Assembly (NCBI GenBank): GCA_017886205.1
Contig: JAFNEO010000012.1
Location: 235,207-299,206 of the forward strand
Source: Candidatus Aminicenantes bacterium
GTDB taxonomy: Bacteria > Acidobacteriota > Aminicenantia > Aminicenantales > UBA8522
Reading direction: 5' to 3'
Length of the DNA stretch: 64,000 nucleotides
Shown: positions 40,637 through 42,145 of the stretch, piece by piece
How positions within the stretch are numbered: position 1 is the first letter of the stretch
Layout of the letters: each line of letters opens with the position of its first letter
The notes under the pieces: model-generated
The model's database searches: none
What the model saw: only the letters and a program-made list of their open reading frames with translations
What the model was told of the DNA's origin: nothing
Position numbers and translations under genes: made by a program

Positions 40637-42145
40637 TCAGCCGTCGAAACGGTATCCCATGCCGCGGACGCTCACGATGTAACGTGGCTCTGAAGGTTCC
40701 GGCTCGACCTTTTTCCGCAGGGTGACGACGTGGTTGTCGACCACACGATCGGTGACGAACGTAGCGTGCCCCCAGACGAGATCCAGGAGTCGATCCCTGC
40801 TCAGCACCTTGCCGCCGTTGCGGACAAAGGCGGTGAGCAGCTTGAACTCGAGGGCCGTCAGCTCCACCGGCTTGCCGGCGCGCCTCAGCTCACAACGCTC
40901 AAAATCCACTTCCGCGTCGCCGAACCGGTATATCGGCAAATCGTCTTCCGCGGTCCGGCGGAGTGCCGCCTTGACCCGGGCCCGCAGTTCGCGCGGGCTG
41001 AAGGGCTTGGTCACGTAGTCGTCGGCGCCGGGATTGGTACTGGTTACGTGCAGAGTCCCGGGCAGGCTGGCGGCGGGCGCCGTCCGGACGGCCCGCGGGC
41101 CGCTTGTGTCGAACAAGCCGATCATCACCTGCCCGTCCGCGTCGATCAAGGCGCCCTGGGCACGCCGGTCTTGCAAAGCCTCTGCCCACTTCGAAGCAAG
41201 GTAACCGGGCCCCGCCAACACAGCGGCCAGCCGATCCAAAGTCCCTGCCCAGGAGATCAGCACCGGCTTGCCTTCAATTTTCAGAATCCGGCGCCCTTTC
41301 GATTCCGGCTCGGCAATCCACTGGCCATATATCGATTCCGTGGCGATCGAGAGCGCAAGGGCGTTCTGCTCACGTTCCTGCAAGGGACTTGCCCCCGACC
41401 AGCGCTGCGCCTCCTCCACATGAAACTCCCAGGCGGGGCGGAGCAAGCTCCAGCGGCCGCTCCAAAGGGCTGAATGCATGAGCGACGCTTCCCTCCGCAG
41501 TTCTTCGCCCTTTCCGATCGCTTCCAGCACGGTGCTGGACGCTTCGCGCGCCACCAGTTCCGCCGGCAGTCCCAGGACGGGGGTTCGGCCAAGTTGCGCG
41601 AGTTCGCCGTAGGCTTGAAGGGCCTCCTCATTGCGGCCGGTTTTTCGGAGGTTCCGTCCCAAGCGCAGCAAAGCGCCGGCACGCACTCCAGGATCCGGTG
41701 ATCACGCAAGCTCCCGGAAGACCTTGGCCGCTTTGCCCGGATCGTTGCGCTGGTACTCCAGGGTCTCGCCGGCGACGAAGGTCGCAGCCGGCGGTTCTTC
41801 GCCGTCCGGAGTCACGGGATAGTAGAGCAGGCAGCCGGGTGGGTAAGCGTTGACGGTGCGTTTCGTCACCTGCAGGACCATCACGCCGTCCGGCGGTTCT
41901 TTCGCGCCAGGGCTTGGGACGAAACTCAGGCAGCTTTCAAGGTCCGTGAGGCTTTGCTGAAGCGCGGCGGCCATGTGGTCCGCCGCTAGTTCTAGGCGTT
42001 CCTGCACGCGCTGTCCCTCGAGCGCACGATCCTGTTTCAGCAGTTGCCAGCCGAGCCAGCCCAGGGCGCCGCCAAAGACAAGCATGAGACAGAGAAAGAC
42101 TGTCAGGGTGCGACCGGGCGGCCGGAGCCAAAGAGCTAATCCCAT
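40637..42145 (-). CDS. Membrane-anchored regulator with degenerate receiver-like segment and OmpR/PhoB-type winged-helix DNA-binding domain; interrupted by in-frame TGA (41702-41704 on + coordinates)
   Basis: C-terminal trans_reg_C (LTALEFKLLTAFVRNGGKVLSRDRLLDLVWG...VSVRGMGYRFDG); 'ADDYVTKPFSPRELRARVKAALRR'; upstream 147-aa ORF in same frame with TM helix; sense reads continuously across the stop. Confidence 0.5.

Follow-up and report, generated by a model that had tools for sequence, protein, structure and literature searches.

Within a 64,000-nucleotide (nt) stretch of the “Candidatus Aminicenantes bacterium” contig JAFNEO010000012.1 (here called the window; unprefixed positions refer to it), we analyzed a locus at 40637 to 42145 on the minus strand in which the remnant of a histidine kinase gene and the remnant of an OmpR-type response regulator gene are fused in frame. 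The locus comprises 503 codons, including an internal and a terminal TGA, and it appears as two minus-strand open reading frames (ORFs) that share one frame: ORF1 (42145 to 41702; 147 amino acids), which ends with the TGA at 41704 to 41702, and ORF2 (349 amino acids), whose first possible start is the GTG at 41686 and which extends to 40637. Five sense codons in the same frame (TCA CCG GAT CCT GGA) follow the TGA of ORF1. A preliminary description of this DNA had reported the two ORFs, their spacing, and the read-through peptide correctly and had missed the fusion by deletion, which is the main feature of the locus.

The kinase-derived part (41019 to 42145, minus strand) corresponds to kinase codons 1 to 375, that is, the first transmembrane segment (TM1; 42038 to 42118, read-through residues 10 to 36) and most of a TPR-containing extracytoplasmic sensor domain, with the premature stop (41702 to 41704) at kinase codon 148. 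The regulator-derived part (40637 to 41018, minus strand) encodes response regulator residues 98 to 224 plus the stop and holds the receiver tail (YVTKPF with Lys102, helix alpha5), the linker, and a complete winged helix. At the deletion junction, at 41019 to 41030 on the minus strand, lies the lone surviving copy of a 12-nt direct repeat, CGGCGCCGACGA.

A Pfam search with the read-through product returned a complete Trans_reg_C domain, the OmpR/PhoB winged-helix DNA-binding domain (PF00486, E = 6e-26, profile positions 1 to 77 of 77, read-through residues 424 to 500, 40646 to 40876 on the minus strand), together with weak TPR signals straddling the stop, and no match to Response_reg, HisKA, or HATPase. 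The NCBIfam models for PhoB, MtrA, OmpR, and others matched the C terminus only from model position ca. 86 to 92 to the end, which identifies the C-terminal ca. 135 residues as the last third of an OmpR-type response regulator. Along similar lines, the read-through residues from ca. 376 on correspond to the final 127 to 130 residues of a 224-amino-acid OmpR-type regulator, and residues 95 to 224 of the regulator in a related locus (L001; related loci are cited by such numbers) mapped to 41029 to 40640 with 95% amino acid identity. The receiver tail and winged helix that had been recognized in ORF2 are thus both present, the latter complete; the tail, however, is not degenerate but a conserved receiver end, and about two thirds of ORF2 is kinase sensor sequence.

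With an X in place of the stop, read-through residues 1 to 373 aligned straight across the TGA (85 to 89% identity, 100% coverage, E about 1e-214) to more than 100 proteins of 624 to 644 amino acids with HisKA and HATPase_c domains, all from Aminicenantes/Acidobacteriota metagenomes. Their alignment to full-length kinases, including intact proteins of 644 residues, indicates that ORF1 and the first ca. 220 residues of ORF2 are, by homology, the N-terminal sensor half of a histidine kinase, and the continuity of sense across the stop that had been noticed earlier is far beyond chance. The kinase-derived part is 93.3% identical in nucleotides and 88.6% in amino acids to the intact orthologue in L001. 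Intact kinases have hydrophobic segments at residues 10 to 36 and 383 to 409, while a Kyte-Doolittle scan of the read-through product found the first alone.

In related genomes, these sequences belong to a cassette of three genes: a kinase of 644 amino acids (TM1, extracytoplasmic TPR-containing sensor, TM2, HisKA, and HATPase), a response regulator of 224 amino acids that overlaps it by 4 nt (ATGA), and a TPR/PD40 beta-propeller protein of ca. 700 amino acids. This order recurs in L001, L003, L007 to L019, and L028, and at least 14 related loci in metagenome-assembled genomes (MAGs) of Aminicenantes/Acidobacteriota still carry the cassette. The triplets L007 to L019 come from a scan of GTDB species genomes, with kinase identities from 94% down to ca. 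46%, and L020 (41% identity) has the kinase and the regulator without a PD40 match. Kinase and regulator are intact in L001, L003, and L007 to L016. Tandem cassettes occur on single contigs in L011, L018, and L028, and in some MAGs cassettes are spread over two or more contigs; a tblastn search of the window revealed no further kinase-regulator cassette.

In the window, the pseudogene is followed by an intact gene for a secreted TPR and PD40 (TolB-like) beta-propeller protein (38467 to 40557, minus strand; the likely start is the ATG at 40557, the mechanical ORF start 40581). It is preceded, in minus-strand order, by an HlyD-like gene (46527 to 45445), two MacB/FtsX permease genes (45448 to 44222 and 44218 to 42968), and an ABC ATPase gene (42958 to 42299), the next gene on its 5' side. 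The locus had been placed upstream of a MacAB-like efflux operon as its possible regulator. It lies instead downstream (3') of the MacB-type ABC transporter genes (46527 to 42299, minus strand), and no MacB, FtsX, or HlyD genes were found near the cassette in any of the 14 or more related loci. As judged by synteny, the pseudogene is tied to the downstream PD40 gene and not to the transporter, and a role as regulator of the efflux genes finds no footing in this gene order. As for the propeller itself, the window PD40 protein is ca. 80 to 83% identical to the PD40 fragment after a second, paralogous cassette in L011 (L011:13697-13906) and to L014:8667-9020; its identity to the PD40 genes located behind the orthologous kinase-regulator pair in other loci is only ca. 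44%. It seems that cassettes swap propeller genes or that these genes diverge fast, with conservation retained in their N termini and promoters.

The first of three lesions in the window allele is the stop at codon 148. At this codon, CGA (Arg) is present in each of the four orthologous loci whose DNA was read (L001 to L004); the search for a sense codon in orthologues, which the preliminary description had proposed, thus supports its suggestion of a recent nonsense mutation. The change from CGA to TGA is a single C-to-T transition in a CpG context (GCG CGA to GCG TGA). Among 24 aligned intact orthologous proteins, position 148 is R or, rarely, Q, with R as the consensus, and no relative compared has a TGA or a Cys there.

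The second lesion is a deletion of 1,097 bp. In a blastn comparison, the window matched L001 in two collinear segments (93.3% and 93.6% identity) whose query ranges overlap by 12 nt, and the overlap is exactly the repeat CGGCGCCGACGA. In L001, this 12-mer occurs at kinase-relative positions 1116, in the kinase gene, and 2213, in the regulator gene, 1,097 bp apart; it is also found at both sites in L007, L009, and L011. The window has one copy, at 41030 to 41019, with kinase sequence to its left and regulator sequence to its right. Missing as a result are kinase residues 376 to 644, with TM2 (383 to 409), the invariant His427, and the DHp and ATPase domains, as well as regulator residues 1 to 97, with E8/D9, D52, and T80, so that K102 in YVTKPF is all that is left of the receiver signature. 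The fusion product joins kinase residues 1 to 375 to regulator residues 98 to 224 (502 codons; junction peptide …TNPGADDYVTKPF…). That the two parts share a frame is an accident with a one-in-three chance: the regulator frame has an offset of 2, and 1,097 leaves a remainder of 2 when divided by 3. The repeat is perfect and 83% G+C. Some direct repeat of 12 nt occurred in 31% of shuffles of the 2.6-kb region; a repeat of this length is therefore unremarkable alone, and it is its coincidence with both breakpoints that matters. Both breakpoints within a direct repeat are the classical footprint of slipped-strand or microhomology-mediated deletion, and the window deletion probably arose by such a mechanism at the 12-bp repeat.

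The third lesion lies 5' of the kinase start. All intact orthologues share a leader of ca. 90 nt directly 5' of the kinase ATG, which contains AATCCTGAC-N15-TCCTGAC and, 9 nt later, TATAAT. Homology of the window to this leader begins only 10 nt before the ATG, with GAGGCAACCC (42155 to 42146), the only part of the rearranged 5' region (42146 to 42196, minus strand) that is common to orthologue leaders. Directly 5' of GAGGCAACCC, and abutting the ribosome-binding site in the window, is a 41-nt element, CATAGAAATTGCACTTCCCAGGTGTTACACTAA, which is found ca. 270 nt further upstream in L001 and ca. 180 nt further upstream in L003. The conserved leader has thus also been deleted, with this element in its place. 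The element (CATAGAAMTTRCACTTCCCAGGTGKTACACTAA) is located at 42156 to 42196 (minus strand), L001:6681-6721, and L003:6793-6811, with 85% identity between the window and L001/L003; in L001 and L003, it precedes a small ORF (MDAVILRCLKKDPVKRFQTVQEI...) resembling a Ser/Thr kinase C-lobe relic. The element itself may be a promoter. A scan of 40400 to 42500 for sigma-70 and terminator consensus sequences returned no sites.

In relatives, the motif pair TCCTGAC-N15/16-TCCTGAC occupies two conserved sites, one ca. 50 to 75 nt before the kinase ATG and the other between the regulator stop and the PD40 gene, both ca. 9 to 10 nt upstream of a -10-like hexamer (for instance, L001:6925-6953, L003:9725-9754, and L007:1044-1072 and 3737-3766). 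The window keeps only the pair between the pseudogene stop and the PD40 gene (TCCTGAC-N16-TCCTGAC, 40625 to 40596, minus strand), which is unique in the window, where 0 are expected by chance. Relatives show almost no variation in the ca. 70 nt that precede the PD40 gene, even with PD40 proteins of only ca. 44% identity. We infer that the boxes are putative binding sites of the OmpR-type regulator. They sit where pho-box-like activator sites do, and the ancestral regulator may have been a PhoB-like activator that autoregulated its own operon and controlled the PD40 gene.

The three lesions, their ancestral states in relatives, and the synteny of the cassette are directly observed, and the locus is, with high confidence, a recently inactivated two-component system, that is, an ordinary recent pseudogene. 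Related genomes have intact, full-length orthologues, and the window allele has a premature stop and has lost essential domains and its leader, all of which are disabling. In the proposed history, the CGA codon of Arg148 became TGA, the repeat-mediated deletion fused the kinase to the regulator, and the leader upstream of the kinase was lost; the lesions were always seen together, with no contig among those found carrying only one. Phosphotransfer is impossible because His427, the ATPase domain, Asp52, and Thr80 are gone, and any residual product is expected to be nonfunctional. The PD40 gene is now probably uninduced or reliant on a paralogous regulator. That the frame still makes sense across the stop would reflect the youth of the lesions.

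Several points weigh against this interpretation. In the kinase part, the window has 22 private nonsynonymous and 16 private synonymous codon changes, and in the regulator part it has 2 and 5, respectively; such counts are no higher than in intact orthologues (ratios of 0.08 to 1.83) and so give no independent signal of relaxed selection; these unexceptional counts indicate recent lesions, as far as codon comparisons go, and do not by themselves prove loss of function. With an in-frame junction and a fully intact winged helix, a residual product is possible by sequence. The evidence for the allele consists of assembled contigs, not raw reads, and the independent assemblies may share a sample or come from related ones.

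Independently broken alleles of the same kinase were found in other metagenomes, two of them with deletions between GC-rich direct repeats of 8 to 9 nt. L027:1976-4523 has a frameshifting deletion of 28 nt between CGGCGCCG repeats, the same left motif as in the window deletion, and an in-frame deletion of 30 nt between GGGACCGGC repeats. In L028:3501-4841, a net deletion of ca. 148 nt removed TM2 and the His box, and L029:184-1425 has a 1-nt deletion at kinase nt 1108. Protein P0132, listed with P0129 among the broken kinase alleles of other metagenomes, appears frameshifted near codon 140. The lesions in L027, L028, and L029 cluster in kinase nt ca. 1100 to 1290, which could mean a slippage hotspot, a recurrent tolerated loss in a multicopy family, or, in part, assembly noise. 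There is also a small chance that the clustered lesions around the CGGCGCCG-rich kinase stretch, independent of one another, represent a recurrent, possibly selected, switching-off of members of the multicopy cassette. Just after the PD40 gene of L003, there is a relic of a paralogous response regulator (L003:11928-12053; the same stretch in L004 and L010, Aminicenantales MAG GCA_049515535.1), internally deleted, with residues ca. 83 to 130 (…LELGPEDCVTKPFSPRELRARIKTALRRT) joined directly to the final YRFDG and stop. This relic suggests that decay of the cassette is common in the lineage.

Given the intact winged helix, we considered whether the remnant still acts. There is only a slim chance that the in-frame remnant or an internally started product is still made at a low level and occupies the TCCTGAC boxes on the PD40 side; if so, a DNA-binding domain without its receiver could act constitutively or as a dominant-negative regulator where the original system depended on a signal. 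Slightly less probable still is a neofunctionalized remnant, in which ORF2 or a shorter product (e.g., from the ATG at ORF2 codon 69) would be made as a soluble winged-helix protein without a receiver and would bind the same boxes with no need for phosphorylation. Trans_reg_C is complete and 95% identical to the orthologue, neither the putative target boxes nor the PD40 gene is damaged, and OmpR/PhoB family members that act without phosphorylation exist (ChxR; PMC3960148). Nevertheless, the sole GGAG overlaps the ORF2 GTG at 41686 and leaves no usable Shine-Dalgarno spacing, unlike genuine starts nearby, which carry spaced AGGAGG or AGAGG motifs. The locus has also lost its conserved promoter and leader, and translation from upstream ends at codon 148. 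In such a protein, ca. 220 residues of a normally extracytoplasmic fragment would sit in the cytoplasm, and the alpha4-beta5-alpha5 dimerization surface of the receiver is lost except for its tail. In addition, two nonsynonymous changes in the winged helix (G to E and G to A) are private to the window, compared with 0 or 1 in 6 of 8 orthologues (3 and 7 in L014 and L012, respectively).

We consider it equally improbable that the strain has an intact kinase and regulator and that the TGA, the 1.1-kb gap, or both were made during sequencing or MAG assembly. The source is an uncultured MAG, a degenerate 38-nt pattern of the junction had 0 matches in JGI metagenome_contigs, and several of the other broken alleles in the databases stem from short metagenomic contigs. 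However, a sequencing error, one of the explanations offered at the outset, sits poorly with the presence of the identical allele in NCBI, JGI, and Logan assemblies. Located by exact protein look-up, the ORF1 and ORF2 proteins are recorded on the NCBI MAG contig (331,766 nt), on three JGI contigs, and on a Logan contig from SRR35914367. Of the JGI contigs, which reach 176 kb, one matches the window at 100% over 9 kb, and the other two encode an identical ORF2. Wherever DNA was compared (L005, L006, and L030), it was 100% identical to the window, and in the Logan locus as well as in L030, the single JGI locus compared, this identity extends over 7 to 9 kb and includes both lesions. A collapse at the 12-nt repeat would be excluded, as the repeat is shorter than any assembler k-mer, and the accumulation of three distinct lesions within a single operon is what one expects of a true pseudogene.

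Programmed read-through of the UGA or selenocysteine insertion, which would yield a membrane-anchored ToxR/CadC-like one-component regulator of ca. 500 amino acids, had also been suggested, and of the explanations weighed here it is the hardest to credit. In its favor, a single TGA interrupts an otherwise open frame, an 81-nt segment comprising the TGA and the sequence behind it folds somewhat better than shuffles (z = −2.1), and in Salmonella, pseudogene stops have been shown to be read through at a low level (PMC9122581). Such leakage would apply to any nonsense mutation and is not programmed here, and the weakly folding 81-nt stretch is nearly identical in orthologues with CGA. The ancestral codon is Arg, the TGA is conserved in no relative, and no Rfam family, bacterial SECIS models included, reached the gathering score anywhere in the window; a tRNA scan of the 64 kb returned none of any kind. 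TGA is, moreover, a normal stop here, ending 14 of the 37 nonoverlapping ORFs of at least 200 amino acids, the most of any stop codon, among them the ABC ATPase gene and the pseudogene itself at its end. The same count rules out an alternative genetic code with UGA as a sense codon. As for the regulator that read-through would produce, its winged helix (residues 424 to 500) follows an extracytoplasmic domain behind TM1 with no second transmembrane segment, so that it would be exported away from the DNA; TM2, which returned the chain, fell to the deletion. The fused architecture is present in this one strain only. The reading as a ToxR/CadC-like regulator does not hold up, and the apparent domain combination is an accidental deletion junction.

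The locus, which we read as a recent pseudogene, is neither a new type of regulator nor a recoding event. Its two ORFs stand separately in public protein collections (at JGI, ORF2 bears the name “hypothetical protein”), and they should be annotated as one pseudogene, not as a novel membrane-anchored regulator or as a regulator of the transporter. Beyond annotation, the locus is a natural example of a microhomology-mediated deletion that joined two adjacent genes in frame, and the comparison with relatives gives a first outline of an uncharacterized, multicopy Aminicenantes cassette whose two promoters each carry a candidate operator, TCCTGAC-N15/16-TCCTGAC.

The rest of the window is rich in TPR and beta-propeller envelope and signaling proteins. 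These include an S9 peptidase with PD40 repeats (17011 to 19128), two Hanks-type Ser/Thr protein kinases with C-terminal TPR arrays (19472 to 21859 and 34999 to 37200, both plus strand), and an LVIVD-repeat propeller protein (24789 to 27002, minus strand); a P-type cation ATPase is encoded at 22040 to 24595. Genes resembling toxin-antitoxin or defense functions encode an AbiEi_2 antitoxin-type regulator (29561 to 30676, plus strand) an AAA_14/DUF4143 ATPase (31696 to 32757, plus strand), and a protein with HTH_3 and SocA/Panacea antitoxin domains (49809 to 50591, minus strand).

In order to put the locus into perspective, we compared it with known systems. It shares with selenoprotein genes and other cases of UGA recoding a TGA within a frame that is open to either side, and it differs from them in the lack of a SECIS match, in the ancestral Arg codon, and in a TGA that is not conserved. 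ToxR-like receptors have a cytoplasmic OmpR-type DNA-binding domain, one transmembrane helix, and a periplasmic sensor (PMC5430869). On paper, the window fusion likewise has a transmembrane helix, a sensor-like domain, and an OmpR-type winged helix in one polypeptide, but in the order transmembrane helix, extracytoplasmic sensor, and winged helix, so that both domain order and topology are reversed. Compared with classical OmpR/PhoB-type two-component systems, such as PhoR-PhoB and EnvZ-OmpR, the window locus is without His427, the ATPase domain, and the receiver residues Asp52 and Thr80, and the cassette itself is set apart from them by its uncharacterized sensor domain (a YbgF-like TPR and a beta-rich part) and linked PD40 gene. 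A further parallel is in Sodalis, where slippage-type deletions at G+C-rich repeats are documented as a route to bacterial gene inactivation (PMC4948707). As in that pattern, the window deletion ends in a short G+C-rich direct repeat of which one copy was kept, and it departs from ordinary repeat deletions in just one respect, namely, that it joined two adjacent genes in frame.

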